A stretch of DNA of 64,000 bases. Origin: Rhodospirillaceae bacterium. GTDB lineage: Bacteria > Pseudomonadota > Alphaproteobacteria > UBA6615. Made by a program: the position numbers and the translations under genes. Position 1 is the first letter of the stretch; the number at the start of each line of letters is the position of its first letter. The notes under the pieces are model-generated. The model worked only from the letters and a program-made list of their open reading frames with translations. It made no database searches and had not been told where the DNA came from. The stretch spans positions 287-64,286 of the forward strand of contig JAYOFO010000008.1 in assembly GCA_038117265.1 (NCBI GenBank), written 5' to 3'. Positions 1-19,937 of this stretch are shown piece after piece.

Positions 1-41
1 GCTAAAGTCACGCAAACAAACGAAACATCGAACGCGAGCCG

Positions 42-560
42 ATGAAACGCCTCTTGCTGATGCGTCACGCCAAGTCCGAGTGGCGCGCCGACGACCAGGA
101 CGATATCGACCGTGCCCTGTCGAATGGCGGCCGCATGACCATGCGCCACGTCGCGGAATGGCTGGTCGCGCAAGACCTGGTTCCCGACCGGGCACTGGTC
201 TCGCAGGCCTTGCGCACGCGCCAGACCTGGGAGCATCTGCGCACGGAACTCGGCGCGGACATTCCCGCCGACATCCAAAGCGCGCTCTACCTTGCCTCGC
301 CCGGCACGCTGCTCGCCCAAATCGAGGCGCTGCCCGACGACACCGAAACCGCGATCGTCGTCGCCCACAATCCGGGCATCGAGGAACTGGCGCGCATGCT
401 CGCGGGTCCGGACCCCGACCCCGGCGCAATGCGCGACCTGCTGCGGGGCTTCCCCACCGCCGGCGTAGCGGTCTTCGAGCTGAACGGCGGGTCCTGGCAA
501 AGCCTGTCGGCTGACGGGGCGCGCCTGGTTCGATCCATGGCGCCGCGCGAGGCCGGCTGA
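42..560 (+). CDS. Histidine phosphatase superfamily protein (SixA-like phosphohistidine phosphatase)
   Basis: N-terminal LLMRHAKSEW matches the RHG-type catalytic motif of branch-1 histidine phosphatases; size ~170 aa and internal VVAHNPG motif fit SixA-like proteins. Confidence 0.65.
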   Translation: MKRLLLMRHAKSEWRADDQDDIDRALSNGGRMTMRHVAEWLVAQDLVPDRALVSQALRTRQTWEHLRTELGADIPADIQSALYLASPGTLLAQIEALPDDTETAIVVAHNPGIEELARMLAGPDPDPGAMRDLLRGFPTAGVAVFELNGGSWQSLSADGARLVRSMAPREAG

Positions 561-595
561 GCCGCCAGCGCGACACGGCGCTGTCACCCGGCCAT

Positions 596-1660
596 GTGAC
601 GCGGCGGCCCGAAACGGATATGACTCCCGCCGGTGCCAGCTGTCGGAACGGATACGCCTTGAACCGAGCCACGCCATCGCGACCGCGCGCCCGGACGAAC
701 GCCGGACAGGAAGCCGTTTCGGTGGAGCTCAGCGCCGTCATCGTGGCGGCATCCTCCAACGGGCCGCGCGTCCTGGTCCGCGAAGACGGATCTTCGCGCC
801 CCGCCGCCCTCCCCTCCGGCCCGCTCGAGTCCGAGCATCGCACCCTCGAGGCCGGGCTCCGCGCCCGGGTCAAGACACTGACCGGCGAGCGCCTCGGCTA
901 TGTCGAGCAGCTCTACACCTTCGGCGACACCAACCGGCACGCCAGCGCACGCGGGCTGCCGGTGCGCGCGCTCTCCGTCGGCTACCTCGCACTGGCACGC
1001 GAAAGCCGATCCCGGCGCGCCGAGACCGGCACATGGGCCGACTGGTACCACTACTTCCCCTGGGAGGATTGGCGCAGCGGCGAACCCGCGATCCTGGACC
1101 GCATCCGCGCGCACATCGCGGGCTGGATCGCAGAGGCGCCCCGCGACGAACGGCGCGCCCGCGAGGCACGCCTGCAACTGACCTTCGGGGCATCGGGCGA
1201 CACCTGGAACGAGGAACTCACGCTCGAGCGCTACGAGCTGCTCTACGAGATCGGTCTCGTGCCCGAGGCGCACCGCGATGGCGCGCCCTGCTGGGCCCCG
1301 CGTGAGGCCGTGATCGCGGAAGCGGACTCGCTCGAGGCCGACCATCGACGGATACTCGCCACGGGCATCTCGCGCCTGCGCGGCAAGATCAAGTATCGCC
1401 CCGTCGTGTTCGAACTGATGTCGCCGCGTTTCACCTTCCTGCAGCTCCAGCAGACGGTCGAGGCGCTCGCAGGCATCCGGCTCCACAAGCCCAACTTCCG
1501 CCGCCTGGTCCAGAACCAGGGGCTGGTCGAGGAAACCGGCGAGGTAACGCAGGAGACCGGCGGCCGACCGGCGAAACTCTACCGGTTCCGACGCAGCGTC
1601 CTGCTCGAGCGGCCGGCCAGCGGCGTGCGGGTTCCCGGCGTACGCCGGCGCGCGACCTGA
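596..1660 (+). CDS. Nudix-related transcriptional regulator (NrtR-like): degenerate Nudix domain plus C-terminal winged-helix
   Basis: Central GPLESEHRTLEAGLRARVKTLTGERL resembles a degenerate Nudix box; C-terminal PRFTFLQLQQTVEALAGIRLHKPNFRRLVQNQGLVEETGE...GGRPAKLYRF matches the NrtR-type wHTH domain; start codon uncertain. Confidence 0.5.
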   Translation: MTRRPETDMTPAGASCRNGYALNRATPSRPRARTNAGQEAVSVELSAVIVAASSNGPRVLVREDGSSRPAALPSGPLESEHRTLEAGLRARVKTLTGERLGYVEQLYTFGDTNRHASARGLPVRALSVGYLALARESRSRRAETGTWADWYHYFPWEDWRSGEPAILDRIRAHIAGWIAEAPRDERRAREARLQLTFGASGDTWNEELTLERYELLYEIGLVPEAHRDGAPCWAPREAVIAEADSLEADHRRILATGISRLRGKIKYRPVVFELMSPRFTFLQLQQTVEALAGIRLHKPNFRRLVQNQGLVEETGEVTQETGGRPAKLYRFRRSVLLERPASGVRVPGVRRRAT

Positions 1661-1765
1661 GGCTCCCGCCACGAAAACCACGGCGGACCGATTGCGCCGC
1701 CCCTGCCGGTAGGGCAACTTGCCTTTCGAACACGGGCAATCGAACCCGAGCGAGGGAGGCACTTC

Positions 1766-2782
1766 ATGCGCGCCGCAAGGCTCCACGAAACCGGCGGACC
1801 CGAGGTCCTGCAGATCGACGAGATTCCGACCCCCGAGGCGGGTCCCGGCCAGGTGCTGGTGAAGGCGCATTCGATCGGCATCGGCATCGCCGACCAGCTG
1901 GTGCGCGACGGCCGGTATCCGTGGATGCCGTCACTGCCGACGATCCCCGGCATCGAGATGAGCGGCACCGTCGCCGCGCTCGGCGCCGGCGTGACGAAGT
2001 TTCGCGAAGGCGATCCCGTCGTTGTGTCGGCCGTGCCCGAGCGAAGCTGCTATGCGGAATACCTCGCCATCGACGCCGACTGGGTCTTTCCCTGCACCCA
2101 CGGGATCGATCTCGCCGCCGCGGGCTGCCTGATGAATTACCGTGTGGGCCATCGCATCCTGCACTCGGGCGCACGCGTGCGCGCGGGCGAGACCGTTGCC
2201 ATCGTCGGCGCGGCGGGCGGCCTGGGCAGCGCGCTGCTCGACCTGGCGAGGGCGGCAGACCTGGAAACCCTCGCGCTCGCCCGCAGCCCCGAGAAGGCCG
2301 CATTCGCCCGTGCGCGGGGTGCCGACCATGTCATCGACACGTCGGCGACCGACCTCAAGGACGCGATCATGGACGTCACCGGCGGGCGCGGCGTCGACCA
2401 TTTCATCGATCCCGTGGGCGGTCCCGGGTTCGTCGGTCATCTCGACCTGCTCGCGATCCACGGCACGCTCGTGCTCTACGGCATGATCGAAGGGCTGCCG
2501 CAGGACGACATTTTCGCTGCCCAGACCCAGCGATGGGCCCGCTGTCCGGCCGTGCGCGTGTTCTCGATCCACTCCTTCGACCACGCACCCGAGGCGACTG
2601 GTCAGGACCTCGAACTGCTCATGGGCATGGCCGCGGGCGGCACCATCGACCCGGCGATATTCGCCGAAATGCCCCTTGAGGCGGCGGCCGAGGCGCACCG
2701 GCTCCTCGACGAGGGCAGAATCATGGGCAAGCTGCTGCTGCAGCCGCACCGGACAGAAGCTCGGTTCGCGAACGACGGCTGA
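1766..2782 (+). CDS. NADPH:quinone oxidoreductase / zinc-type alcohol dehydrogenase-like (MDR superfamily)
   Basis: GETVAIVGAAGGLGSALLDLA Rossmann motif, N-terminal GroES-like region, strong RBS GAGGGAGG upstream of ATG. Confidence 0.8.
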   Translation: MRAARLHETGGPEVLQIDEIPTPEAGPGQVLVKAHSIGIGIADQLVRDGRYPWMPSLPTIPGIEMSGTVAALGAGVTKFREGDPVVVSAVPERSCYAEYLAIDADWVFPCTHGIDLAAAGCLMNYRVGHRILHSGARVRAGETVAIVGAAGGLGSALLDLARAADLETLALARSPEKAAFARARGADHVIDTSATDLKDAIMDVTGGRGVDHFIDPVGGPGFVGHLDLLAIHGTLVLYGMIEGLPQDDIFAAQTQRWARCPAVRVFSIHSFDHAPEATGQDLELLMGMAAGGTIDPAIFAEMPLEAAAEAHRLLDEGRIMGKLLLQPHRTEARFANDG

Positions 2783-2786
2783 GAGC

Positions 2787-3530
2787 TCAGTTGAAGTAGA
2801 GGCCGCCGTTCATGTGGACGGTCTGGCCGGTCATGTAGGCGTTCGTGGCGAGCATGACGACGGCCGACGCCACCTCGTCGACATGGCCGGGCCGCCCGAC
2901 CGGCGGCGCGAAGGCGATCTCGGCGGGCGTGCGCGCGGTCAGCGTCATGTCGGTCTCGACGATCGTCGGCGCCACGCAGTTGGCGGTGATCCCCTCCTCC
3001 ACCAGGCGTCGGGCGTAGGCGCGCGACAGCGCCTCCATGCCGCCCTTGGAGGCGGAATAATGGATTCCGACCCGCCCGCCATTGTAGGCCGCCCCGGAGC
3101 TCACGAAGATCAGCCGGCCCCACTTGCGTTCGCGCATTCCCGGCAGCACCGCCTGCGCGCACAGGAAGGCCGTGGTGAGGTTGGCCTGGAGCGTTTCGTT
3201 GAAGTCGGCCTCGGTCGTGTCCTCGATGTCCAGCCGCCTGCCCATGCCCGCATTGGCCACCAGGATATCTATCGGCCCCAGCGCCACCTCGACCTCACCA
3301 ACCATGCGGGTGACGTCGTCGCCCACCGACACGTCACCCTGGACGACGAAGGCGCGCCCACCCGCCGCCTCGATCGCGGCGGCCGTGTCGCGCGCGGCCT
3401 GTTCGTTGGCGACATAGTTCACCGCAACGGCCGCGCCCGCCTCGGCCAGCACCCTGGAGCAGGCCGCGCCGATGCCGCGGCCGCCGCCCGTGACCAGCGC
3501 CACCCGGCCCGTCAGATCGAAAATCTTCAC
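2787..3530 (-). CDS. Short-chain dehydrogenase/reductase (SDR) family oxidoreductase
   Basis: TGGGRGIGAA cofactor motif, YSASKGG catalytic motif; start set at GTG/TTG near 3530 (VKIFDLTGRVALVTGG) rather than the long upstream ORF extension. Confidence 0.8.
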   Translation of the reverse strand: MKIFDLTGRVALVTGGGRGIGAACSRVLAEAGAAVAVNYVANEQAARDTAAAIEAAGGRAFVVQGDVSVGDDVTRMVGEVEVALGPIDILVANAGMGRRLDIEDTTEADFNETLQANLTTAFLCAQAVLPGMRERKWGRLIFVSSGAAYNGGRVGIHYSASKGGMEALSRAYARRLVEEGITANCVAPTIVETDMTLTARTPAEIAFAPPVGRPGHVDEVASAVVMLATNAYMTGQTVHMNGGLYFN

Positions 3531-3544
3531 CAACGTCTCCCGGG

Positions 3545-5077
3545 CTACATCACCGCGCCGACCTGCCACGGGATGAACTCGTTGTCGCCGAAGCCGAGCG
3601 CCTCGGACTTGGAGAGCTTCCCGCTGGCCACGTCGAGCATGTAGTCGAAGATCTCCGCGCCCACCTCCTCGATGGTCGCGTCGCCGTCGGCGATCTTGCC
3701 GGCGTTGATGTCCATGTCCTCGGACATCCGCTCGTACATCGGCGTGTTGGTCGAGAGCTTGATCGACGGCGCCGGCTTGCAGCCATAGACCGAGCCCCGG
3801 CCGGTGGTGAAACAGACGATGTTCGCGCCCGAGGCGACCTCGCCGGTGATCGAGGCCGGGTCGAAACCGGGCGAGTCCATGAACACGAAGCCTTTGGTGT
3901 CGACGGGCTCGGCATACTTGTAGACACCGGTCAGGTTGGTCGTGCCGCCCTTCGCCGCCGCGCCCAGAGACTTTTCGAGGATCGTCGTCAGGCCGCCCGC
4001 CTTGTTGCCCGGCGAGGGGTTGTTGTCCATCGAGCCGTGGTTGCGTGCGGTGTAGTCCTCCCACCACTTGATCCGATCGACCAGCTTATGCCCGACCTTC
4101 TCGTCGACCGCGCGGCGGGTCAGCAGGTGTTCGGCGCCGTAGATTTCGGGCGTTTCGGCGAGGATGCCCGTCCCGCCATTCGCGACCAGCCGGTCGACGG
4201 CATTGCCCAGCGCCGGGTTCGCGGTGATGCCCGAATAGGCGTCCGAGCCGCCGCACTGCAGCGCGACGGTGAGTTCGCTGGCCGGCACCGTCGAGCGGGT
4301 CGCGGCGTTGGCCGGCGCGAGCATCGCGGAGATGCGCTCCACTGCCTCGTCGACGGTCTTCCGCGTGCCGCCCGATTCCTGGATCGTCATGGTCTGGAAG
4401 GTGTCGTTGAGCTCGAGCCCGTAGGCGTCCAGCAGGAACGGAATCTGGTTCACCTCGCAGCCCAGCCCGACGATCAGCACGCCGGCGAAGTTCGGGTGCC
4501 GGGCATAGCCCCAAAGGGTGCGCTGCAGGTTGGCGTAGCCCTCGCCCGAATCCGCCATGCCGCAGCCCGTCGCATGCACGAAGGCCGAGACGCCGTCGAT
4601 GTTGGGATAGTCGGCGAGCTTGCCCGTGGCGTTGAACTGGTCGGCGATATAGCGCGCGACGGTCGCCGAGCAGTTCACCGAGGTCAGAATGCCGATGTAG
4701 TTGCGCGTGCCGACCGAGCCGTTCTTGCGCACAAAGCCCTCGAACGTGCGCCGTTCGGCCTCGGGCACCATGGGCGTATCACGCAGGTCGGTCGCGAACT
4801 GGTAGTCGCGCTCGACCGGCCGAAACTCGCAATTCTGCGTGTGCACATGATCGCCCGCCGCGATGTCTTGCGAGGCATAGCCGATGATCTGGTCGTACTT
4901 GATCACCGTCTCGCCCTTGGCGATCGCGCGTGTCGCGATCTTGTGCCCGCGCGGTATCGGGTCGGCGGTCGTCACCTCCTCGCCGGGGATGTCGGTGCCG
5001 GGCAGGATTTCGGCGCGGGCGACGACGACATTGTCGGCGCCGTTCAGGCGGATGGTGAGCGGTGCGGTGTCGGACAT
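3545..5077 (-). CDS. UxaA-family altronate/galactarate-type sugar acid dehydratase
   Basis: 510 aa, N-terminal SAF-like domain followed by UxaA C-terminal domain signatures (VNCSATVARYIAD, GCGMADSGEG, LQCGGSDAYSGITANP). Confidence 0.8.
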   Translation of the reverse strand: MSDTAPLTIRLNGADNVVVARAEILPGTDIPGEEVTTADPIPRGHKIATRAIAKGETVIKYDQIIGYASQDIAAGDHVHTQNCEFRPVERDYQFATDLRDTPMVPEAERRTFEGFVRKNGSVGTRNYIGILTSVNCSATVARYIADQFNATGKLADYPNIDGVSAFVHATGCGMADSGEGYANLQRTLWGYARHPNFAGVLIVGLGCEVNQIPFLLDAYGLELNDTFQTMTIQESGGTRKTVDEAVERISAMLAPANAATRSTVPASELTVALQCGGSDAYSGITANPALGNAVDRLVANGGTGILAETPEIYGAEHLLTRRAVDEKVGHKLVDRIKWWEDYTARNHGSMDNNPSPGNKAGGLTTILEKSLGAAAKGGTTNLTGVYKYAEPVDTKGFVFMDSPGFDPASITGEVASGANIVCFTTGRGSVYGCKPAPSIKLSTNTPMYERMSEDMDINAGKIADGDATIEEVGAEIFDYMLDVASGKLSKSEALGFGDNEFIPWQVGAVM

Positions 5078-5105
5078 GAATGAACTCGTCGGATAAGGGT
5101 TGTCG

Positions 5106-5957
5106 TCAGAACTTGAGGGTGGTCGTGAGATAGTCCCACGGGCTGTAGAAGCGAACCCCGTCGCGCACGGGCGGCTGCGGCGCCTGGATCTCCAGCCAGT
5201 GGACGGGCGTGCCCTTGCGCGGGAAGAAGGCGTGCTGCGCGCCGACGCCGGTCCACGCGAAGTCGCCTTCCTTCAGCACATACTCCTGACCGTCGAAGAC
5301 GATGTCGACCTCGCCGCCGAGCACGAAATACGCCTCCTCGAACGGGTGGTCGTGATGGTTGCAGATGCCACCGTCGGCGAAACTGATGACGAACATGTTA
5401 AAGTGCACGGCACCGAACACGTCGTCCATCATCATGCGTTGGGAAAACCCATCCAGGTCGGTTGTGATAGTCAAGGGCGGGGTGTGCTGCGAATAGTCGT
5501 AGTGACCCAGCATCGGATGCCGCCGGTCGGCAAGGTTGATCGGCGACCCGCCCGCCGACCAGTCGGCCGGCCCGTCGAACCAGGTGTCGCGCCAACCTCC
5601 CGGCGGCTTGGGCTGGGGCGCACACATCTCGACCCAGCGCGCGGGCGCGCGGCCCGTGCTCCGGTAGGCGTGCTCGATCCCCGTCGGAATCAGCATGAAG
5701 TCGCCTTCGACGAGGCGGTAGAGACGGCCGTCGCGGCTGACTTCGACCTCACCGGCGATCATGTAGAGCCCGGTCTCGTGGGCCTGGACGATGATCTCGG
5801 TCTCTCCGCAGGCATCCAGTTGCATGATCCCGTAGGAGATATGCACCGTCTCGTCGGCGTGCTCGACGAACGGCGCCCAGCCCAGGCCGGACGCGTAGCC
5901 GTCATATTTGGGATGCGGCGCGAACGCGCCCGCGTCGAACGTCCCGACCTTGTGCAT
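5106..5957 (-). CDS. Bicupin (double cupin domain) protein
   Basis: Two cupin-like halves with conserved His-rich beta-barrel motifs; RBS GAGGGGG before ATG at 5957; immediately upstream of the UxaA-family gene on the same strand. Confidence 0.55.
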   Translation of the reverse strand: MHKVGTFDAGAFAPHPKYDGYASGLGWAPFVEHADETVHISYGIMQLDACGETEIIVQAHETGLYMIAGEVEVSRDGRLYRLVEGDFMLIPTGIEHAYRSTGRAPARWVEMCAPQPKPPGGWRDTWFDGPADWSAGGSPINLADRRHPMLGHYDYSQHTPPLTITTDLDGFSQRMMMDDVFGAVHFNMFVISFADGGICNHHDHPFEEAYFVLGGEVDIVFDGQEYVLKEGDFAWTGVGAQHAFFPRKGTPVHWLEIQAPQPPVRDGVRFYSPWDYLTTTLKF

Positions 5958-5992
5958 TTGCCCCCTCGCCCGACGAGCCGCCACCGGCGGGT

Positions 5993-6310
5993 CTAGCGTG
6001 CCCGCGGATGTTCGGAAATCGCCTTCCTGACGTCACTCGGCTGCGCCTCGACGGCCTCGGCCAGCCGGCACAGCTGGTCGCGCAGACCATACACCTGATC
6101 CAGCAGCGAAAGAACCATCGGCACGCCTTCCTCGGCGACCGCCATGTCGCGCCGGATTTCGCTGACCAGCCGCACCCGGGCAACGTCGATTTCGCGGAAC
6201 CAGAAGTCGCCCGCGCGCCGCTCGGGCAGCACCCAGCCTTGTGCGATCCAGCGCCGAAGTTCGGCCCGGCGCACGCCGGATACCTGCAGCAGGACTTCGC
6301 GTTCGCGCAT
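5993..6310 (-). CDS. cbpM: Chaperone modulatory protein CbpM (MerR-like)
   Basis: 105 aa, MerR-like N-terminal helix, start ATG overlaps cbpA stop in a TGACCATG arrangement typical of cbpA-cbpM operons. Confidence 0.6.
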   Translation of the reverse strand: MREREVLLQVSGVRRAELRRWIAQGWVLPERRAGDFWFREIDVARVRLVSEIRRDMAVAEEGVPMVLSLLDQVYGLRDQLCRLAEAVEAQPSDVRKAISEHPRAR

Positions 6311-6312
6311 GG

Positions 6313-7233
6313 TCAGGCCTCCATTCCGGCGCGGGGATCGTAGCCGTGCTTCGCCGACCAGCCTGCGATGAAGTCCGCAAGTTCGTCGTCGGCCGCCTCG
6401 GGCAGCACGACCTTCAGCGTCACGTGCTGATCGCCGCGCACACCCGCCTTGCCGCCCGGCACGCCGCGTCCCTTGAGGCGCAAGCGGTCCCCGGAGTTGG
6501 AATTCCTGGGGACCCGCATCTCCACCGGCCCGTCGACGGTCGGCACGCGCACCTTCGCGCCAAGCACCGCCTCGTGCAGTGCGGCCGGCAGGTCGATGTG
6601 GATGTCGTTGCCGACCCGCCGGAACAGCGCATGCGGGCGTATATGGACGCTGACCAGGGCGTGACCGGCGGGCCCGCCACCGATCCCCGGCGCGCCCTTG
6701 CCGCGCAGGCGCAGAACCTGGCCGTCGCGCAGCCCGGCCGGGATCGACAGGTCCAGCGTCTTGCCGTCCGGCATGGTGATGCGCCGTTTCCCACCCTTCG
6801 CGGCATCGAGGAAGTCGACCTCGAAGCTGTAATGGATGTCTCCGCCGCGCATGCGCACCCGCCCGCCCGCGCCCTGCCCCTCGCGGCGGAAAAGGTCGGC
6901 GAACACGTCGCCGAAATCGGCGAAATTGGCATAGCCGTCGGCCGATCGATAGGGGTGGTCGGCGCCCGCCTCGGCATAGTGGCGATAGGAGGGCTGCGCG
7001 GCGCGCTCGTGGCCCTCCGCGTCGATCTCGCCGGCGTCGAAGCGCGCGCGCTTGTCCTTGTCGCCGACGATGTCGTAGGCGGCCTGCGCCTCCTTGAAGC
7101 GCTCCTCGGCCGCCGCGTCGCCCGGCTTCAGGTCGGGATGGTTCTCCGTGGCGAGCTTGCGGTACGCCTTGCGAATCTCGTCCGCCGAGGCGTCCCTGGC
7201 CACGCCAAGGACAATGTAAGGATTCCTGGCCAC
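6313..7233 (-). CDS. cbpA: Curved-DNA-binding DnaJ-like co-chaperone CbpA
   Basis: N-terminal J domain (NPYIVLGVARDASADEIRKAYRKLATENHPD), C-terminal DnaJ-type substrate-binding domains, no zinc-finger region; followed by cbpM. Confidence 0.8.
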   Translation of the reverse strand: MARNPYIVLGVARDASADEIRKAYRKLATENHPDLKPGDAAAEERFKEAQAAYDIVGDKDKRARFDAGEIDAEGHERAAQPSYRHYAEAGADHPYRSADGYANFADFGDVFADLFRREGQGAGGRVRMRGGDIHYSFEVDFLDAAKGGKRRITMPDGKTLDLSIPAGLRDGQVLRLRGKGAPGIGGGPAGHALVSVHIRPHALFRRVGNDIHIDLPAALHEAVLGAKVRVPTVDGPVEMRVPRNSNSGDRLRLKGRGVPGGKAGVRGDQHVTLKVVLPEAADDELADFIAGWSAKHGYDPRAGMEA

Positions 7234-7326
7234 GATGTCCGTCCGCTCACAACTCCACCCACCAGATGTAGTGCGTTGTTGAGACGTTTGAAGGCCTGGC
7301 CGCGATCGACGCCGACCTGGAAAGCA

Positions 7327-7350
7327 AAAGCCCGCCGGATGGCGGGCCTT
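7327..7350 (-). terminator. Rho-independent terminator downstream of tRNA-Met
   Basis: On the minus strand: GCCCGCC-ATCC-GGCGGGC hairpin followed by TTTTGCTTT. Confidence 0.55.
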
Positions 7351-7358
7351 CGAAGGGT

Positions 7359-7435
7359 TGGTAGCGGAGGAGGGACTCGAACCCCCGACACGAGGATTAT
7401 GATTCCCCTGCTCTAACCAGCTGAGCTACTCCGCC
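7359..7435 (-). tRNA. tRNA-Met (anticodon CAU; elongator or lysidine-modified Ile2 type)
   Basis: 77 nt cloverleaf read on the minus strand: GGCGGAGTAGCTCAGCTGGTTAGAGCAGGGGAATCATAATCCTCGTGTCGGGGGTTCGAGTCCCTCCTCCGCTACCA; CAT anticodon in a 7-nt loop; encoded CCA. Confidence 0.85.
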
Positions 7436-7477
7436 CCGTATCGCGGCTGGGGATATAGGTGGAGCGTTCCCCGCCTG

Positions 7478-7892
7478 TCAAGCGCGCGGCGGGTTCGTTC
7501 GCCGGGCGACGAGACGCCCGGCCCGCAGCGCCAGACGGTTCAACATCGGCTGGCCGCCGCCGGGCACCGAGACGAGTTGGCCGATCACCGGTTCCTCGAA
7601 CCCGTGGATGTCGATGGTCGCGAACTTGACAATACGCGTCTCGAAGCTTTGCACGCCTGGAATCTCGGCGATGCCGGTCGGCGACCTTCTCGGGCGCGCG
7701 CTCGACCCCGGCGAAGACATCGGCGAAGCGGTAGCGCTCGTAATAGGCCCGACCGGTCGTTTCGAGCGCGTCGATCGCGCTGAACGACATCACCAGGACC
7801 GCGACACCGGACGCAACCACGAGGGCGATCACCAGGACCTGGCCCTTCAGCCGCCACAGATTCCGAAACAGCTTGCGGTCGAGCGCCCCCAT
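7478..7892 (-). pseudogene. Remnant of an FtsX/YbbP-type ABC transporter permease (N-terminal ~140 codons, frameshifted, truncated)
   Basis: Frame A gives MGALDRKLFRNLWRLKGQVLVIALVVASGVAVLVMSFSAIDALETTGRAYYERYRFADVFAGVERAPEKVADR (typical TM1 and start of periplasmic domain). Similarity continues in another frame (IAEIPGVQSFETRIVKFATIDIHGFEEPVIGQLVSVPGGGQPMLNRLALRAGRLV) and stops at 7478, about 40 nt before the tRNA. Full-length members are 380-850 aa. Confidence 0.55.
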
Positions 7893-7897
7893 GCCCT

Positions 7898-8632
7898 TCA
7901 CCACGCCAGCTCCCGCGCCGGCCGCCGTTGGGTGTTGACCTCTTCCTTGACGATGCGCCCGTCGCCGAACGAGATCACCCGGTCCGCCATCTCGCCAATC
8001 CCCCTGTTGTGGGTGATCAGCGCCGTGGCCGTGCCGAGCTCGCGGTTGACCTGCTCGATCGCTTCGAGGACGACGATGCCCGTTGCGCTGTCGAGCGCGC
8101 CCGTGGGCTCGTCGCACAACAGGATGTCCGGCCGCTTGGCGATGGCACGGGCGATGGCGACACGCTGCTGCTCGCCTCCCGAGAGTTGGGCCGGGAAGTG
8201 GTCGAGCCGGCCCCCCAGCCCGACGATGGCAAGCGCATCGGCCGGCGGAATCGAGACCGGCGCGATCTCGGTGACGAGAGCGACGTTCTCGACCGCCGTC
8301 AGGCTCGGAATCAGATTGTAGAACTGGAAGACGAACCCCACATGGTCGCGCCGGAACCTGGTGAGCGCGGCATCGTCGCTCGCGACCAGTTCACGGCCGC
8401 GAAAGTAGACATGCCCGTCGGTCGCCTGGTCGAGCCCGCCCAGAATGTTGAGCAGCGTCGACTTGCCGCTTCCCGAGGGGCCGAGCAGGACGACGAGTTC
8501 GGATTCGCGCAAATCCAGATCGACCCCACGGAGCGCCCAGATCTCGACATCACCCGTGATGTAGGCCTTGGTCAGGCCCTGCGCCCGCAGGACGACGCTC
8601 GGCTCGGAAGCGCCATCCGGGTTCAAGGACAT
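7898..8632 (-). CDS. ABC transporter ATP-binding protein (YbbA/LolD/MacB-type ATPase)
   Basis: Walker [10 protein letters not shown], signature [14 protein letters not shown], Walker B ILLCDEPT; stop 5 nt before the permease-remnant ATG; alternative upstream start at 8716. Confidence 0.85.
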
Positions 8633-8729
8633 TTCGGTCTCGATTGCACCGTTGCACCGCCTTTGCGGTTCGGCCCCACCGTCGACAACGATATGCCGCA
8701 GCCCGCGCCGCGACATTGACCCAGGTCAT

Positions 8730-9695
8730 CTAGCGTGGGCGTACCGGCCCGTCGGGCACGGTTTCGGTTAGTGCCGCGGGAGCGGCACGCCGGCCGCGCC
8801 CCAGCAGAACGACCCCGACGACGATCAGCACGAAGGCGATCATGTGGAAGAGTTGCAGCTCCTCGCCGAGGATCAGGATGGCCAGCACGGCGGTGATCAT
8901 CGCGCGGATGTAGTTCGACACGGTCGCCTTGTTGGCACCCAGCGCGAGCACGGTGGTGTTGGTGAAGCCGACGGCGACGATGGCGACGGCGATGCCGATC
9001 CAGGCCATGGCGGCGACCGATTCCCAGGTCACGGGCATCGGCATGTAGACCGCGCTCTCGACCAGGTAGATCGGCAGCATGACCGCGACCGAGAAGAGCT
9101 GGACCGACAGCAGGATCTCGAGCGTCGTGAAGTCGCCGGGAATCATGCGCAACAGCGAATTGTGGGTCGCGAAGCCGATCATCGCGGCGAGCATGATCAG
9201 GTCGCCGATGTTCGGCTCGAGCGTCAGCAGGACCGCGAGATCGCCGCGCATGATGATCAGGAACACGCCAAGGGTCGCGATGAAGATACCGAGCCCCTGG
9301 GTGCGGGTGATCGCCTCGCGGAACACCAGGAAGGTGATCAGCACCGTGGCCACCGGCTGGGCGGTCGAGACGAGGCCCCCGTTGATCGCGGTGGTGTAGT
9401 GATAGGCGAGATAGACAGCGGCGTTGCCGAACGGCCCCAGCGCGATCGCCAGCACCACGAAGAGCTTCCACCGCGCGACCAGGACCGCCCGCTTCTCCCA
9501 GACCGAACGTCCGACGAAGGGCAGCAGCACCACCGTCGCGATCATCAGGCGCCAGAAACCGACCCCCATGGGCGGCATCACGCCTTGCACCCAGCGCCCG
9601 AGAATGTGGTTCGAGGCGAGGATGAACGCCGCGCCCAGGATCAGGACATAGGGCCATGCGCCCTGCCGGAACCGGTGCTGGACGTCGTCGCTCAT
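8730..9695 (-). CDS. DMT superfamily (EamA-like) transporter
   Basis: ~320 aa with ~10 predicted hydrophobic helices and duplicated EamA-like halves; start chosen at MSDDVQHRF rather than the upstream extension. Confidence 0.7.
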   Translation of the reverse strand: MSDDVQHRFRQGAWPYVLILGAAFILASNHILGRWVQGVMPPMGVGFWRLMIATVVLLPFVGRSVWEKRAVLVARWKLFVVLAIALGPFGNAAVYLAYHYTTAINGGLVSTAQPVATVLITFLVFREAITRTQGLGIFIATLGVFLIIMRGDLAVLLTLEPNIGDLIMLAAMIGFATHNSLLRMIPGDFTTLEILLSVQLFSVAVMLPIYLVESAVYMPMPVTWESVAAMAWIGIAVAIVAVGFTNTTVLALGANKATVSNYIRAMITAVLAILILGEELQLFHMIAFVLIVVGVVLLGRGRRAAPAALTETVPDGPVRPR

Positions 9696-9738
9696 CGTGG
9701 TGCCGTGGCCGGCGCTCGCCGCGCCGGATTTGGTGCCG

Positions 9739-10131
9739 CTATTCCGGCTTCGCCGCGATGGTCTCCATCTCGACGACCCATTGCGGGCTGGCGAGCTGGC
9801 TGACGACCACCCAGGTCGATGCCGGCACATGGCCCGGCGCCAGGTACTTCTCGCGGTGCGCCTTGACGTGCTGCAGGCCGGTCGGATCGGTCGAATAGAC
9901 GTTCAGGCGCACGATGTGTTCCGGCCCGAACCCGGCGTCCGCCAGGACCGCCAGCGTGTTCTGCCAGATCTGATCGTGCTGTGCCTCGAAACCCTCGGGC
10001 ACGGTGCCGTCGGGGCGCGTGCCGACCTGGCCGGCGGTGATCAGCCAGCGCGCGTTCGGCGGTACCTCCACCGAGTGGCTGTAAATACCGGCGGGCGGCG
10101 CGACGGTCGACGGGTTACGCGTGACGAGCAT
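9739..10131 (-). CDS. RidA/YjgF family reactive intermediate deaminase
   Basis: 130 aa, PPAGIYSHSVEV...ITAGQVG and C-terminal VEMETIA motifs characteristic of RidA family. Confidence 0.75.
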   Translation of the reverse strand: MLVTRNPSTVAPPAGIYSHSVEVPPNARWLITAGQVGTRPDGTVPEGFEAQHDQIWQNTLAVLADAGFGPEHIVRLNVYSTDPTGLQHVKAHREKYLAPGHVPASTWVVVSQLASPQWVVEMETIAAKPE

Positions 10132-10195
10132 GTTGGTTCCTCCTCTGGTTCCGCGCGAGTGCAGATTGAACGATTGGCACGGCCTGCCCTTTCGC

Positions 10196-10912
10196 TCAGG
10201 CAAACTCGAGCAGCGTGTCCGCAAGATCCTGCGGTGCCGAGTAGAACGGCGAATGGTCGGTGTCGAGGGTGAAGACCCTGTCGCAGGGCTGCGCATCGAT
10301 CATCAGCCGTTGCATGTTGATCTTGATGGCGTTGTCGCGCAGGCACTCGATATAGGCGCGCTTCACCGCCCCGAACCGTCCGGGCGTGGTCCGTGCCGGC
10401 TGCTGGAAGATCTGCAGCGCCTGCGGAACCAGCTGCTCCTTGGCGCGCGCGACGTCCTCGTCCGAACACTCGCCATAGAAGGTCGGCTGGATGACCTCGT
10501 CGCGCATGGTCACTGAGAGCCCGTCCGCGGAAGGTATGCGGTTGGAGACCACCGTGTTGTCCCCCTCGAGCTTGGCGAGGTCGGCGCGCGACTGGCCGTT
10601 CGCCGGCATGACCGCGGTCAGGTAGACGACCCAGGCGACCTTCTCGGGCAGCCGCTCGGTCACCTGCGTGATCGTCATGCCGCCAAGGCTGTGGCCGACG
10701 AGGATTACCGGCCCGTCCTGCGCCTCGACGACCTTGCAGACATGGTCGACATAATTGTCCAGGGTCACCTGCGCCATGGGAACCCGGTTGTTACCGTGCC
10801 CCGGCAGGTCGACCGCAATCGCGGTGTGCCCGGCCGCTTCGAGCAGCGGGACGATACGCTCGTAACACCAGCCGCCATGGAATGCGCCGTGGACCAGAAT
10901 GTATGTGCTCAT
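10196..10912 (-). CDS. Alpha/beta hydrolase (esterase, MenH/SABP2-like)
   Basis: [14 protein letters not shown] start and nucleophile elbow GHSLGG; ATGA start/stop overlap with mnmA. Confidence 0.7.
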
Positions 10913-12069
10913 GCTGCCTTGCCCCTCCCGGCGTCCCGGACGATCCAGCCGCCGCCGAGTACCCGTTCGCCATCATAGAACACCGCGGCCTGTCCCGGCG
11001 AGACGCCGAATTCCGGCGTCGCCAGTTCGACGGCCGCCTCACCGTCGCCCGCGGGTCGCACATGGCCGGGGACGGGCAGCATGGTCGAGCGGATGCGCAA
11101 CTGGACGTCCACGCCCGCATCCGGAATCACCCCGTCGCCCCCGAGCCAGTTGACCCCGCGCACGCGAACCGTCGCGGTGGCGAGCGCATCGCGCGGGCCC
11201 ACGACCACGCGCCGCGTCTCGGGATCGAGCCGCACGACATAGAGCGCCTCGCCCTCGTCGCCCTCATCGCGCCGCGCGCCGATGCCAAGCCCGCGCCGCT
11301 GGCCGATCGTGTAATTGAGGATGCCCGCATGACGCCCCAGCACCGTGCCGTCCAGGTGGACGATCTCGCCCGGTTCCGCCGCGCCGGGGCGCAGCCGTTC
11401 GACCAGTGCCGCGTACTTGCCGTCGGGAACGAAACAGATGTCCTGGCTGTCGGGCTTGTCGGCGATGTCGAGACCGAGGCGGCGGGCATGCTCGCGCACC
11501 GCGTCCTTGGGCATGTCTCCGAGCGGGAAGCGCAGGAATTCAAGCTGGTCGCGGGTCGTGGCGAACAGGAAATAGCTCTGGTCGCGGGCCGGATCGACGG
11601 CACGGCACAATTGCGGGCCGTCGGCACCGACCATGCGGCGGATGTAGTGGCCCGTCGCCAGCGCGTCGGCGCCCAGGTCGCGCGCCGTGGCCACCAGGTC
11701 GCGGAACTTCACCGTCTGGTTGCACGTCACGCAGGGGATCGGCGTTTCGCCGCGGACATAGGCGTCGGCGAAGGATTCGATTACGTCATCGCGGAAGCGG
11801 GATTCGTAGTCGAGAACGTAATGGGGAAAACCGATCGCGTCGGCGACCCGATGGGCGTCGTAGATGTCCTGTCCGGCGCAGCAGGTCTTGCCGCGTGCCG
11901 TGGCCGCGCCATGGTCGTAGAGCTGCAGGGTGATCCCGACCACGTCGTAGCCGGCCTCATGCAGCAGCGCGGCCGTGACCGAGCTGTCGACACCGCCCGA
12001 CATGGCGACGACGATTCGGGTTGCTGCGGGCGGCTTTTCGAAGCCCATGCTGTCCGGCGATAGCGACAT
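10909..12069 (-). CDS. mnmA: tRNA-specific 2-thiouridylase MnmA
   Basis: PP-loop [11 protein letters not shown], catalytic cysteines CVTCN, conserved GHY...DQSYFL motifs; start at MSLSPDS. Confidence 0.9.
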
Positions 12070-12214
12070 GGCGCGCAATATAGGGTCGGGCCCGCGCGAC
12101 GCAAACCGCTCACGAATGCGTATCCGGGTTGATCGCGCCCGCATGACAGCCCATCTTCATGAAAGGAACTTCAGGCAAGGGGCGAGAGCGACGGTGGGCA
12201 GGGCAGCGACAGGC

Positions 12215-12805
12215 ATGGCGAGCATCGGGCTCATCGCGCTGGCTTTCGGCGCGACGAACGCGCATGCCGATCTCCGGAGCGACGTGGCGCGCTGCGCCGC
12301 GATCGTCGACGGCGCCGCGCGTCTCGCCTGTTTCGACACGCTTGCCGGCGGGGTGGAGGCCCCGCAAAGTGCGGCGAGAGATGCGGCGATCGCGGCCCTG
12401 AGCCGCGAGTTTCGCTTCGACCGCGGGCTGATGACCGGTCCCCTATCCTTTCGGGTGGCGGTCAGCGGCAACCTGGTGCTGAGCCGCGAGACCGCGGCCG
12501 CCCGCGAGGTCGAGGATGTCGTGCGACGGATCGCAAGGACGATCGACGGCTCCAACGACTGGCGTGTCGCCGTTACGGTGCATGGCGGCAAGGCCAAACT
12601 CAGCCGCGGACACCCCTATACCGGCGAAGAGCTGCTCGCCCAGGCGCGTGCCGGCATGGCCAGCACCGGGTTGGCCGAGACGCGCTATACTGTGACGCGC
12701 GGCGCCGATGCCGAGCCCGTCCTGTGGGACGACGGCCGCGTGCGCAGCGCCAATGAACACATCGAAATCGAGATCGAGGGTTTCGGCAACGGCCTGACGC
12801 GCTAG
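12215..12805 (+). CDS. Secreted hypothetical protein with C-terminal OmpA-like domain
   Basis: Signal peptide MASIGLIALAFGATNAHA; C-terminal TGEELLAQARAGMASTGLAETRYTVTRGADAEP...RVRSANEHIEIEI resembles the peptidoglycan-binding OmpA_C fold; start uncertain (ATG 12215 or GTG 12194). Confidence 0.4.
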   Translation: MASIGLIALAFGATNAHADLRSDVARCAAIVDGAARLACFDTLAGGVEAPQSAARDAAIAALSREFRFDRGLMTGPLSFRVAVSGNLVLSRETAAAREVEDVVRRIARTIDGSNDWRVAVTVHGGKAKLSRGHPYTGEELLAQARAGMASTGLAETRYTVTRGADAEPVLWDDGRVRSANEHIEIEIEGFGNGLTR

Positions 12806-12825
12806 GCCGCCCCCTGGGCCGCCCC

Positions 12826-13506
12826 CTAGGCCGCGTCGAGCCCCATCTGCCAGAAGTCCGCCTCGAGCCGGCTCGCCTGCTCGAAGGTGCGCACGAGCGA
12901 GGCCTCGCGGGCACGTCCGGCGCGCGCCTCCCACAGCCGGTCGAGGGTCGCGGCATGGGCGGCCGCGACGCCCTGGTATTCGGCGCCGGCATACATCTCG
13001 ACCCAGGGTCGATAGGGGTTGGCCGGGTCCGTCGCCCCCGGATCGGCGCCTAAGCGTGCGCCGATCTCGCCATAGCCGATGACGCACGGCGCCAGCGCGG
13101 CATAGAGATCGAGTAGATCGCCCTGCGCGCCCTTCTCCAGCACATAGCGCGTGTAGGCCATGGTGGCGGAATCCTCGGGCAGCGCCTCCATCGCAGCCTC
13201 GTCGAGCCCCCATGCGGCGCAGAACGCCACATGCAGCCCCATCTCGGTGTCGACGATCGCCGACATGCCCGCCGCGGCATCGCGGATATCGGCCAAAGTA
13301 TCGGCCTTGAAGGCGGCTAGCGCATAGGCGCGCGCGAAGTGGATCAGGAACAGGTAGTCCTGGCCCAGATAATGGCGAAACGCCGCCTGGGGCAGGCTGC
13401 CATCGGCGAGCCGGCGCACGAATTCGTGGTCGACATAGGCTCCCCAGGCAGGCCGTGACGCGTCGCGCAGGCGCGCGAACAGCTCATGCGCGTCGAGATA
13501 CGGCAT
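12826..13506 (-). CDS. TenA/THI-4 family protein (thiaminase II-like aminopyrimidine aminohydrolase)
   Basis: AFRHYLGQDYLFLIHFARAYALAAFK and active-site cysteine context LAPCVIGYGEIG typical of TenA_C; ATG overlaps the fdx stop (TAATG). Confidence 0.7.
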   Translation of the reverse strand: MPYLDAHELFARLRDASRPAWGAYVDHEFVRRLADGSLPQAAFRHYLGQDYLFLIHFARAYALAAFKADTLADIRDAAAGMSAIVDTEMGLHVAFCAAWGLDEAAMEALPEDSATMAYTRYVLEKGAQGDLLDLYAALAPCVIGYGEIGARLGADPGATDPANPYRPWVEMYAGAEYQGVAAAHAATLDRLWEARAGRAREASLVRTFEQASRLEADFWQMGLDAA

Positions 13507-13838
13507 TAGCCAAGCATCAGGTTTCGGGTCGCGGACGGCAGGTGGACGACGAGCCCGTCCAGCGCCGGGGTGATCACGATCTGGCAGCCGAGCCGCGAGG
13601 TCGGCCGCAGGCCCGGCGCAAGATCGAGCATGTCCTCCTCGTCTTCCGAAGGCTCGTCCAGCCGTTCGTACCACGCCGGATCGACGATCACATGACATGT
13701 CGAGCATGCCATCGCGCCCTCGCACGCCCCCTCGATATCGAGCCCGTTGTCCCAGGCGATCTGCAGCAAGGAATGGCCCAGCGGCGCGTCGACCTCGCGC
13801 CGCGCGCCGTCGGCGTCGATGAAGGTCATCCTGGGCAT
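13506..13838 (-). CDS. fdx: 2Fe-2S ferredoxin, adrenodoxin/putidaredoxin type
   Basis: 110 aa, cysteine ligands in GACEGAMACSTCHV and LGCQ. Confidence 0.8.
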   Translation of the reverse strand: MPRMTFIDADGARREVDAPLGHSLLQIAWDNGLDIEGACEGAMACSTCHVIVDPAWYERLDEPSEDEEDMLDLAPGLRPTSRLGCQIVITPALDGLVVHLPSATRNLMLG

Positions 13839-13866
13839 GTTGCGTATCGCGCCGGCCGAGACAGGT

Positions 13867-14202
13867 CTAGACGTGGAAGGACTCGCCGCAGCCGCAGGTG
13901 CCCTTGGCGTTTGGGTTGTCGAAGACGAAGCCGGATTCGAACTTGCCCTCGCGATAGTCCATCGTCGCGCCGATCAGGAACATGGTCGCTGCGGGATCGA
14001 CGAAGACCCGCACGCCCTTGTCCTCGATCACCTCCTCGAACTGCCGGGCCTCCTCCGCATATTCGACGACATAGGACAGCCCCGAACAGCCGCGGGTCGA
14101 CAGTCCGACGCGCAGGCCCACGACGCCTTCGTCGGCTCGCGACATGATATCCTTCACCCGCGCGGCGGCGGCATCGGTCAGTTTGATGATCGGTTCGGCC
14201 AT
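13867..14202 (-). CDS. Iron-sulfur cluster insertion protein (IscA/SufA/ErpA, HesB family)
   Basis: RGCSG and C-terminal GTCGCGESF cysteine motifs; RBS GAGGTG upstream of ATG. Confidence 0.8.
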   Translation of the reverse strand: MAEPIIKLTDAAAARVKDIMSRADEGVVGLRVGLSTRGCSGLSYVVEYAEEARQFEEVIEDKGVRVFVDPAATMFLIGATMDYREGKFESGFVFDNPNAKGTCGCGESFHV

Positions 14203-14229
14203 CTGCATCACCTCTACGATCTATCTAGG

Positions 14230-14640
14230 TCAATCTATGCCCAAGGCCAGCTTGGCGTCGTCCGACATCATGTCGGTGGACCAGGGCGGGTCCCAGATCA
14301 GGTTCACCTCGACCTCGCCGACCCCTTCGACCTCCGCTGCCGCGTTGGCCACCCAATAGGGCAACTCGCCGGCAACCGGGCAGGCCGGTGCGGTGAGGCT
14401 CATATTGATGCGGACCGAACCGTCGGAGAGCATCTCGATCTCGTAGACCAATCCCAACTCGTAGATGTTCACCGGAATTTCCGGATCGTAGACCGTGCGC
14501 AGCGCGTCGATCACCGCGTCGCGCGCGGCCGGTTGCGTGCCTTCGGGCAGCGGTGCGCCGGCACGTGCCGTCATCTCCTCGCCTTCCGGCTGCGGGGCAA
14601 ACATCCCGTGCGGGCTTCCCATTCCATACTCGAACGACAT
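14230..14640 (-). CDS. sufT: SUF system Fe-S assembly protein SufT (DUF59/MIP18 family)
   Basis: DUF59 signature VYDPEIPVNIYELGLVY...LTAPACP; start MSFEYG 12 nt after sufU stop. Confidence 0.7.
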   Translation of the reverse strand: MSFEYGMGSPHGMFAPQPEGEEMTARAGAPLPEGTQPAARDAVIDALRTVYDPEIPVNIYELGLVYEIEMLSDGSVRINMSLTAPACPVAGELPYWVANAAAEVEGVGEVEVNLIWDPPWSTDMMSDDAKLALGID

Positions 14641-14651
14641 ATCGGTCTGTC

Positions 14652-15107
14652 CTATTCCGTCGAAATCTCTGCTTCGCCCTCGAGCGCGGCCACCATGGTG
14701 TGCCAGGGCAGGGTCGCGCACTTCACGCGGGTCGGGAAATCGCGCACGCCCGAAAGCACGCGCAGCTTCTCTAAATCTTCCTGGAGTTCGGGCGCATTCT
14801 CATCGCCCGTGCACATGCCGTGGAAGGCGTCGAACATCGCCTGCGCCTGGGCGGGCGTGCGTCCCTTGAGCAGCTCGGTCATCATGGAGGCCGAGGCCAT
14901 CGAAATGGCACAGCCCTTCCCCAGGAATGACGCATCCACGATTTTCCCGTCGGCACCGAGCGTCAGGTAGATGACGAGCTGATCGCCGCACAGCGGATTG
15001 TTGCCCCGCGCCTCGTTGGTCGCATCGTCGCAGGCGTGGAAGTTCCGCGGGTGCTTCCCGTGGTCCAAGATCACCTCCTGGTAGAGTTCGCGCAATTCGT
15101 CACTCAT
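14652..15107 (-). CDS. sufU: SUF system zinc-dependent sulfurtransferase SufU (IscU-like)
   Basis: Three conserved ligand motifs NPLCGD, GKGCAISMASASMM, KCATLPWH and DHGKHPRNF match SufU rather than SufE. Confidence 0.7.
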   Translation of the reverse strand: MSDELRELYQEVILDHGKHPRNFHACDDATNEARGNNPLCGDQLVIYLTLGADGKIVDASFLGKGCAISMASASMMTELLKGRTPAQAQAMFDAFHGMCTGDENAPELQEDLEKLRVLSGVRDFPTRVKCATLPWHTMVAALEGEAEISTE

Positions 15108-17685: not shown

Positions 17686-17695
17686 CCGCGCCTCC

Positions 17696-18451
17696 CTAGG
17701 CCGCCTGCTCGAGGAATTCGGCATAGCCCTTTTCCTCGAGCTCGAGCGCCAGTTCCTTGCCGCCGGACTTCACGATCCGGCCGTTTGCCAGCACGTGGAC
17801 GTGGTCGGGGACGATGTAGTCGAGCAGCCTCTGGTAATGGGTGATGACGAGCATGCCACGTTCGGGCGAACGCATCGCATTGACGCCGTCGGCGACCAGC
17901 TTGAGCGCGTCGATATCGAGCCCGGAATCCGTTTCGTCGAGGATCGCGAAGCGCGGCTCCAGCGCCGCCATCTGCAGGATTTCCATGCGTTTCTTCTCGC
18001 CGCCCGAGAACCCGGTATTGACCGAGCGCTTGAGCATGTCGTCCGAGATGTTGAGGTCGCCCGTGCGTTCGCGGATGTACTTCACGAAATCCATCGGATC
18101 GAGCGGCGTCTCGCCGCGATGCCCGCGCACCGCGTTCACCGCCGTGCGCAGGAAGTTCATGTTCGTCACGCCCGGAATCTCGACCGGATACTGGAACGCC
18201 AGGAACACGCCCTCGCGCGCGCGCTCGTCGGGTGCCATGTCGAGCAGATCCTTGCCGTCGAAGAGCACCTCGCCGCCGGTGACCTCATAGCCCTCGCGAC
18301 CGGTCAGCACATAGGAGAGCGTGCTCTTGCCCGAGCCGTTCGGCCCCATGATCGCGTGCACCTCGCCGGCGCCGATCGTCAGATCGAGCCCATTGATGAT
18401 CGGCTTTTCATCTACCGTCGCGTGAAGATCGCGGATTTCCAACAATGCCAT
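17696..18451 (-). CDS. sufC: Fe-S cluster assembly ATPase SufC
   Basis: Walker A GPNGSGKST, ABC signature FSGGEKKR, 251 aa. Confidence 0.9.
   Translation of the reverse strand: MALLEIRDLHATVDEKPIINGLDLTIGAGEVHAIMGPNGSGKSTLSYVLTGREGYEVTGGEVLFDGKDLLDMAPDERAREGVFLAFQYPVEIPGVTNMNFLRTAVNAVRGHRGETPLDPMDFVKYIRERTGDLNISDDMLKRSVNTGFSGGEKKRMEILQMAALEPRFAILDETDSGLDIDALKLVADGVNAMRSPERGMLVITHYQRLLDYIVPDHVHVLANGRIVKSGGKELALELEEKGYAEFLEQAA

Positions 18452-18467: not shown

Positions 18468-19937
<1,470 letters not shown>

Follow-up and report, generated by a model that had tools for sequence, protein, structure and literature searches.

Does a permease gene that breaks off shortly before a tRNA gene mark the place where a mobile element once integrated or excised, as the initial annotation of this locus proposed, or did the gene decay in place? 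The locus lies in a 64,000-nt stretch of an alphaproteobacterial contig, hereafter the window, in which the stop codon of an intact ABC ATPase gene (7900-7898) is found 5 nt ahead of the permease ATG (7892-7890), as had been described, so that the adjacent cognate ATPase expected for a type VII permease is present. The feature is a real, ordinary deletion-plus-frameshift pseudogene, a case of ordinary gene decay. We consider it very probable that the segment 7478-7892 is the permease remnant of an ancestral three-gene efflux-pump operon, left by an internal deletion of ~3.2 kb in which no site-specific recombination took part. Coordinates are collected in Table 1.

Table 1. Features of the locus, in window coordinates, with the evidence on which each was placed.
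Feature	Position	Strand	Evidence
cbpA-like (DnaJ + DnaJ_C) and cbpM-like (MerR_2) genes	5993..7233	minus	Pfam, NCBIfam; syntenic in relatives
Hairpin GCCCGCC-ATCC-GGCGGGC followed by TTTTG	7325..7347	minus	Read from sequence
tRNA-Met, anticodon CAT, intact	7359..7435	minus	ARAGORN; Rfam RF00005, 61.4 bits
Putative tRNA-Met promoter	7453..7482	minus	CTTGACA at 7482-7476, 17-nt spacer, CTATAT at 7458-7453; conservation
Deletion junction	7493..7511	minus	blastn against L167; 19 nt in place of 3,226 nt
Permease stub, frame 2 (codons ~74-132)	7505..7672	minus	Translation, tblastn, protein alignment
Single inserted base (+1 frameshift)	7673	minus	Alignment; placement ambiguous within 7672-7675
Permease stub, frame 1 (codons 1 to ~73)	7674..7892	minus	Translation, tblastn, orthologue alignment, hydropathy
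ABC ATPase, LolD/MacB-NBD/DevA type, 244 aa, intact	7898..8632	minus	PF00005, E=1.6e-32
Palindrome TGACCTGGGTCA	8717..8728	minus	Conservation; between EamA stop and ATPase
EamA-family transporter gene	8730..9695	minus	Pfam EamA, E=2.7e-27; conserved left neighbour of the ABC operon

The first frame of the stub was translated as MGALDRKLFRNLWRLKGQVLVIALVVASGVAVLVMSFSAIDALETTGRAYYERYRFADVFAGVERAPEKVADR, which covers the N-terminal cytoplasmic segment, TM1 (residues ~19-37) and the first part of periplasmic domain 1, and the next frame continues within the same domain as IAEIPGVQSFETRIVKFATIDIHGFEEPVIGQLVSVPGGGQPMLNRLALRAGRLVA until a TGA at 7480-7478, 42 nt from the 5' end of tRNA-Met. Permease-like sequence in two frames, ending at 7478 near the tRNA gene, had already been reported and was recovered here; the frame change, in contrast, is not located near 7720-7735 but consists of one extra base at ~7673, position 7720 being the first ATG of the second frame. 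By tblastn, residues 1-74 of the L018 permease align to window 7901..7680 and residues 70-132 to 7693..7505. Family homology stops at the end of the second-frame segment (at 7505 by tblastn and 7512 by blastn) and covers ~132 of ~787 codons, or 17% of the protein; that it is short was stated correctly at the outset, its extent being corrected from ~140 codons. The retained part amounts to TM1 and ~95 residues of the first periplasmic domain, without any FtsX helix, either coupling region or the second module. Compared with the intact orthologues, whose N-termini are 81-82% identical to the stub, ~655 residues and seven membrane helices are missing, in agreement with an expected loss of several hundred residues but not with the three further TM helices first assumed, as the intact orthologues have eight hydrophobic segments.

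The repaired 137-aa stub gave no matches in Pfam or NCBIfam, MacB_PCD included, and its family was assigned via homologues. The FtsX C-terminal three-helix domain (PF02687) was found neither in the stub (Pfam) nor in the whole window (tblastn), and no remaining permease or adaptor parts were detected below E=0.1 elsewhere in the 64-kb window (tblastn). Homologue searches with the stub as query returned short or partial proteins only and missed the full-length orthologues (P0073, for instance, is the same 80-aa ORF in another assembly). This 80-aa ORF, called at 7478-7720 by JGI and named 'putative ABC transport system permease protein', is not a gene, and 7478-7892 should be annotated as a pseudogene. 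The stub is unable to form a transporter, and what the window contains is a pseudogene remnant of a type VII (MacB/FtsX-superfamily) permease rather than a member of the family. The initial annotation was thus right in its core: the gene is a pseudogene of an FtsX/MacB-superfamily permease, truncated and frameshifted, next to a partner ATPase that is intact.

In order to describe the intact family, 80 loci containing ATPase homologues from many phyla (62-73% identity) were used for family statistics and not for orthology. Among the matches listed, a permease match follows the ATPase in 75 of the 80 loci, 67 of 69 complete permeases measure 784-835 aa (mostly 786-788 aa), the adaptor gene lies directly downstream of the permease in 62 of these 69, and none of the 62-73% ATPase homologues is syntenic with the window. 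Intact permeases carry the FtsX domain twice together with MacB_PCD (Pfam), while the product of the third gene matches HlyD_3 and RND_mfp (110.6 bits, above the cut-off of 94.9). Hydropathy profiles of four intact orthologues, a crude measure, display eight hydrophobic segments arranged as 1+3 and 1+3. These domains and gene neighborhoods define a family of duplicated MacB-like permeases, each acting together with a separate ATPase and a periplasmic adaptor.

The ancestral operon is placed by its sequence within the type VII (MacB/FtsX) ABC superfamily (PMC5985334, PMC12646458), to which MacAB-TolC-type tripartite efflux pumps belong (PMC5985334), and it resembles pumps of the MacAB or DevBCA type. 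With MacAB-TolC, the intact orthologues share an N-terminal TM helix, a MacB-like periplasmic core domain and the FtsX C-terminal bundle, as well as an ATPase of the LolD/MacB-NBD type and an adjacent HlyD/RND_mfp periplasmic adaptor gene. The ATPase of E. coli MacB is fused, however, while here it is a separate polypeptide, and the 4-TM protomer of MacB dimerises, whereas the orthologues considered here are ~787-aa duplicated chains with eight hydrophobic segments. The gene order (ATPase, permease, adaptor) is a further difference, and of these genes the window itself retains just the ATPase and 17% of the permease; the adaptor, present in orthologous loci, has been deleted. E. coli YbbAP(-TesA) likewise combines a separate ATPase with a long duplicated type VII permease of ~800 aa and two periplasmic domains, but YbbP has 10 TM helices, a TM5-6 linker and the lipid hydrolase TesA as its partner (PMC12646458). 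The orthologues of the window locus, by contrast, have eight hydrophobic segments (crude hydropathy) and a membrane-fusion adaptor gene next to the permease, while YbbAP has no adaptor (PMC12646458), and the window ATPase reaches 186.8 bits against a YbbA equivalog cut-off of 336. The earlier label 'YbbP/FtsX-type' is appropriate at the superfamily level and for the long duplicated permease, but 'YbbP-type' claims too much: in view of the ATPase score, the eight segments and the adaptor, the permease is not a YbbP orthologue. Cyanobacterial DevBCA also consists of a separate ATPase (the window ATPase is DevA-like, 189.8 bits), an FtsX-type permease and a membrane-fusion protein (the adaptor is DevB-like, 45.9 bits), although both scores are under the subfamily cut-offs (295.8 and 129, respectively). 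DevC is a single 4-TM module and not duplicated. The best NCBIfam matches of the ATPase (LolD, DevA, YbbA, and MacB-NBD) all fall under the equivalog or subfamily cut-offs.

The permease was broken twice. At the extra base the window reads GACCGGCATCGCC, and the orthologues L167, L170, L171, and L086 are one base shorter (GACCGG-C-ATCGCC in the window vs. GAGCGG-ATCGCC in the orthologues). The second lesion was delimited by blastn against L167, in which window 8584->7512 corresponds to 9626-10697 and window 7492->7352 to 13924-14062. The lost DNA comprises the permease from about codon 127-133, a 13-nt spacer, the whole adaptor gene (its stop in L167 is at 13899) and at most 25 nt beyond, so that the alignment with orthologous loci proposed at the outset identifies the missing DNA as the remaining permease sequence and the adaptor gene. 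A distance of 10-30 nt separates the end of the deletion from the tRNA-Met transcription unit downstream, with the breakpoint placed only to within the GC-rich segment 7493-7511, as the nearest intact orthologue is ~76% identical in DNA. Microhomology at the breakpoint was considered (strings containing CCGG occur on both sides in L167), but these are indistinguishable from chance at 76% DNA identity and no claim is based on them. Direct and inverted repeats around the junction were limited to weak, chance-level GC-rich matches, and neither target-site duplications nor IS ends were found there.

Syntenic contigs bearing the operon were obtained from JGI (L167, L168, L169), from Logan (L170), and from a 4.33-Mb ENA/NCBI contig (L171). 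Their common order is Suf genes ... MnmA, hydrolase, RidA, EamA, ATPase, permease (787/788 aa), and adaptor (400 aa), and the window matches this order from the Suf operon up to and including EamA. In L167, L169, and L171, tRNA-Met starts 76-80 nt past the adaptor stop (the short L170 contig ends inside such a gene), followed by cbpA, cbpM, cupin, and GD_AH genes in L167 and L169. A metagenome scan with CbpA yielded syntenic relatives without the operon (L087, L088, L090, L091, L092, and L094; flanking proteins 66-91% identical), in which MnmA, hydrolase, RidA, EamA, tRNA-Met, cbpA, and cbpM follow each other with no ABC genes. The EamA gene is syntenic in all relatives, operon present or not. 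L172, L174-176 and the L087-L094 group lack the operon altogether but have all kept the putative tRNA promoter; their EamA stop is 9-60 nt away from its -35 box, except in L172, where it is a TGA within that box, the same TGA as the stop of the stub. Taken alone, these operon-less relatives suggested a lineage-specific insertion, a reading rejected in view of the intact operons at the same site. An ORF as short as that of the stub, the finding that the initial annotation had named as speaking against its interpretation, occurs in same-species assemblies only, whereas more distant relatives either carry the operon intact or lack it.

A neighbor-joining tree was built from 1,001 aligned residues of four left-flank genes. 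It unites the window and L172 as sisters (bootstrap 100%), pairs L167 with L170, and groups L087, L092, and L094; L171 is the most distant taxon, with 64-67% identity to all others. Based on this tree and the shared site, the operon appears to be ancestral between EamA and tRNA-Met and to have been lost repeatedly, a rooting that depends on L171 as the most distant taxon with weak backbone bootstraps (36-56%). As the whole operon is gone in L172, L174-176 and the L087-L094 group, it is dispensable in this clade. The partial loss in the window is separate from the complete loss in L172, because a remnant persists in the window and is almost undecayed. The repaired stub has no internal stop and deviates at none of 21 columns conserved in ≥90% of the sequences, and a relative-rate test against L167 with L171 as outgroup gave 10 vs. 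6 unique changes (p=0.32), i.e., no acceleration. For the ATPase the same test gave 13 vs. 8 (p=0.28), equally without acceleration. Since neither stub nor ATPase has an excess of amino-acid changes, the inactivation is recent relative to species divergence. Across six assemblies, 32 SNP sites were counted in 18.7 kb, 3 of them in the 415-bp stub and 29 in the other 18,301 bp, a ~4-fold enrichment in the stub (Poisson p ~0.03) that fits relaxed constraint.

The tRNA gene towards which the deletion runs shares 96% identity with its counterpart in relatives. It was named tRNA-Met from its CAT anticodon and may be an elongator Met or a lysidine-modified Ile2 tRNA. The motif CTTGACA...CTATAT is found 41-49 nt before the tRNA in L087, L090, L091, L092, L094, L167, L170, L171, L172, and L174. 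The alphaproteobacterial sigma-70 consensus is CTTGAC-N17-CTATAT, and given this resemblance together with the conservation, we regard the motif as the probable promoter of tRNA-Met; the stop codon of the stub falls inside its -35 box. The hairpin on the other side is likely the terminator of the tRNA, and comparable hairpins, each with a T run, are located downstream of the tRNA in L087, L090, L091, L092, L094, and L174. A generic scan for sigma-70 promoters and terminators called neither the promoter nor the hairpin, the latter being below the T-run threshold. The 3' side of the tRNA faces the cbpA-cbpM and sugar-acid genes, as the initial annotation had it.

These observations allow the possible origins of the broken gene to be compared. 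The locus is known from metagenome assemblies only, and one contig stops within the stub, hence the gene might in principle be intact or continue on another contig, its disruption being an artefact of sequencing or assembly. Same-species contigs were retrieved by exact-protein look-up from four JGI metagenomes (L001, L083, L084, and L085) and one Logan run (L002), and all five align to the window gap-free at 99.89-99.97% identity. L084 breaks off within the stub, at window 7727, while each of the four assemblies that span the site (L001, L002, L083, and L085) carries both the extra base and the truncation. Because both lesions recur in these four independent assemblies from different samples, the broken permease is not a sequencing error; the extra base also lies outside any homopolymer run, and the sequence is continuous and syntenic on either side of the junction, which leaves an artefact with a practically negligible probability. 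An integrase that inserted or excised a genomic island at tRNA-Met, thereby breaking the permease, is likewise highly improbable. The locus is similar to tRNA-associated islands and their scars in that a disrupted gene adjoins a tRNA gene whose 3' flank varies among relatives: L167 has a RidA-like gene there, L087 and L094 have an alpha/beta-hydrolase gene, L174-176 have four genes, and in L171 synteny breaks off. Integrases that target tRNA genes, however, place islands at the tRNA 3' end, while the stub precedes the tRNA promoter on the 5' side. Orthologous loci, with gene order conserved on both sides, show that what was lost is the operon's own native continuation. In the window itself, no foreign or variable DNA was found on the 3' side, which runs directly into the conserved cbpA-cbpM genes, and no lineage-specific cargo flanks the tRNA. 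Integrase and transposase families are absent from the Pfam matches of the genes called across L083, a contig whose overlap with the window (1-18716) reaches ~7 kb beyond the tRNA on the 3' side and ~11 kb on the 5' side. A 24-mer from the tRNA 3' end (≤3 mismatches) retrieved nothing but the tRNA itself in the 64-kb window, and so did 25-, 18-, and 14-mers (5, 3, and 1 mismatches) in the window, L167, L171, L087, and L094. The initial annotation had seen neither integrase nor repeat and had suggested searching for a second copy of the tRNA 3' end; both absences were borne out over these ranges, and its reading of the broken gene as an integration or excision scar is not upheld. In general, a truncated gene beside a tRNA should be checked for the side of the tRNA on which it lies and against orthologous loci before it is called an integration scar.

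Another origin would be horizontal transfer, in which the ATPase and an already truncated 5' fragment of the permease arrived together and were inserted between EamA and the tRNA by illegitimate recombination. It would account for EamA being followed directly by the tRNA in several related lineages, the sister species L172 included, and homologous operons do exist in many phyla. Nevertheless, it is very improbable: the complete operon occupies exactly the same site in L167, L170, and L171, and the GC3 values of the ATPase (0.865) and the stub (0.85-0.89) are indistinguishable from those of neighboring host genes. The ATPase identities to L167, L170, and L171 (84%, 84%, and 81%; P0122 and P0123 at 84%, P0126 at 81%) rank as those of the flanking genes do, though the gap between them is much smaller. 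In addition, a palindrome just after the EamA stop, TGAC(C/T)TGGGTCA, is common to the window, L167 (TGACTTGGGTCA), and L171, where it is kept while the surrounding intergenic sequence diverges, and it is absent from the operon-less lineages; from this pattern, it may serve the ABC operon as an operator or promoter element. A deletion is thus preferred. On this account, the ancestral operon between EamA and tRNA-Met consisted of genes for an ATPase, an 8-TM permease of the MacB/FtsX type (duplicated, ~787 aa) and an adaptor of ~400 aa. A single ~3.2-kb deletion would have removed the permease from codon ~127-133 onward together with the adaptor, ending short of the tRNA-Met promoter, and the one-base insertion at ~7673 broke the permease frame as well. 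We favor an internal deletion over traffic of foreign DNA because, apart from the lost segment, the genes follow one another as before (EamA, ATPase, permease, adaptor, tRNA-Met, cbpA). That the deletion ends at the tRNA would follow from selection on the tRNA and its promoter, as only deletions sparing both would survive and end-points would pile up against the promoter. A stronger version, in which the EamA-tRNA-Met interval is a recurrent deletion site that lost the operon at least three times (partially in the window lineage, completely in L172, and completely in L174 and/or the L087-L094 group), with every deletion stopping at the promoter and the ATPase perhaps recruited by another type VII permease, is distinctly unlikely. 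If true, it would provide a natural series for studying promoter-shaped deletion end-points and the re-use of orphan ABC ATPases.

The deletion is compatible with two fates of the ATPase, and only the step in which the orphaned gene would be intact merely for lack of time to decay is at stake between them. All catalytic motifs are readable (Walker A, Q-loop, LSGGEQQ signature, Walker B, and H-loop), the protein deviates at 1 of 94 columns conserved in ≥95% of the sequences, which is the median for intact relatives, its rate is not accelerated, and the population has a single SNP site in its 735 bp. Continued function would explain an intact ATPase equally well, and selection might have kept it for powering an FtsX/MacB-type permease encoded elsewhere or for another role. 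We nevertheless consider this unlikely. The integrity of the ATPase is no proof of its use, because the demonstrably dead stub is just as well preserved, and sister lineages dropped the ATPase along with the rest of the operon. Moreover, its sole conserved-column deviation, S127, sits at a position that is Pro in 84 of 84 relatives, and the 64-kb window contains no further permease of this family. Most likely, the ATPase is an orphan recently cut off from its permease and adaptor, in which damage has not yet accumulated, and it should be flagged as an orphan in annotations. The locus records the repeated loss of a MacAB-like efflux pump in uncultured alphaproteobacteria and suggests that the pump is dispensable in their habitats. 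As for the conserved left flank, the best named matches of its MnmA protein are alphaproteobacterial MAGs (76-79%), with Denitrobaculum and Pelagibius at 66-67%.

The permease pseudogene downstream of the intact ATPase gene, which is truncated and carries one extra base at ~7673, offers two overlapping reading frames. Left uncorrected, the first frame runs for 159 codons (window 7413-7892, minus strand), crossing the promoter of the tRNA-Met gene and ending 23 nt inside the tRNA gene itself. JGI gene calling predicts instead an 80-aa ORF in the second frame (7478-7720, minus strand; P0073), with the product name 'putative ABC transport system permease protein'. Neither of the two should be annotated as a gene. 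A contig of the same species (L084) stops inside the pseudogene, its position 10990 corresponding to window 7727, 54 nt ahead of the frameshift. No sequence divergence was found at this contig end within the pseudogene, and a possible origin of the break is coverage or a strain-level break in the assembly graph.

The entire operon is missing (region 13230-13400) in L172, the sister of the window organism (83.5% amino acid identity in the flanking genes, bootstrap 100%), where a TGA within the -35 box of the tRNA promoter serves as the stop codon of EamA. This contig was obtained from JGI 3300066509, the sample that also gave the same-species contig L083, and it terminates within the tRNA, probably due to sequence common to both co-occurring species.

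Codon 127 of the retained ATPase (window 8252-8254) encodes serine, as opposed to the proline present in 84/84 relatives, syntenic orthologues included. The serine is identical across all assemblies covering the codon, with no SNP, and may be either an early sign of relaxed constraint on the ATPase or harmless. The spacer between EamA and the ATPase contains a palindrome, which is kept in two relatives with an intact operon (L171, and L167 as TGACTTGGGTCA) despite the divergence of the remaining spacer, and is absent from the lineages that lost the ABC operon. It is a candidate operator or promoter element of this operon.

The DNA 3' of the same tRNA-Met varies among relatives. The window and L090-L092 have no extra DNA at this flank. 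Among the variable loci, four were searched for a second copy of the tRNA 3' end (L167, L171, L087, and L094), and none turned up.

Locations of the palindrome, tRNA-Met 3' flanks, overlapping ORFs and short permeases
Feature	Location	Strand	Also in
Palindrome TGACCTGGGTCA, directly after EamA stop, upstream of ATPase	window 8717-8728	minus	
RidA-like gene, 129 aa, 3' of tRNA-Met	L167 14056-14682		L169
~0.9 kb with reverse-strand alpha/beta-hydrolase (GHSGG motif), 3' of tRNA-Met	L087 9064-10000; L094 9012-10000		L088
~4 kb, four genes (hydrolase, Nif11-like, GNAT, TPR-sulfotransferase), 3' of tRNA-Met	L174 9941-13873		L175, L176
Synteny break 3' of tRNA-Met	L171 14495 onward		
Overlapping ORFs (examples)	window 6241-7416; 7608-8321; 8844-9803	plus	
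Short permease ORFs	L008 from ~10711; L076 from ~10711		

Between window positions 5500 and 10500 (both strands), other frames and the opposite strand also hold numerous long ORFs that overlap; these were rejected as genes, being spurious ORFs of the kind usual in DNA of 67% GC. Unusually short permease ORFs were also found behind a homologous ATPase in two unrelated genomes (615 aa in L008, 408 aa in L076), and these may be additional cases of decay or sequencing errors.
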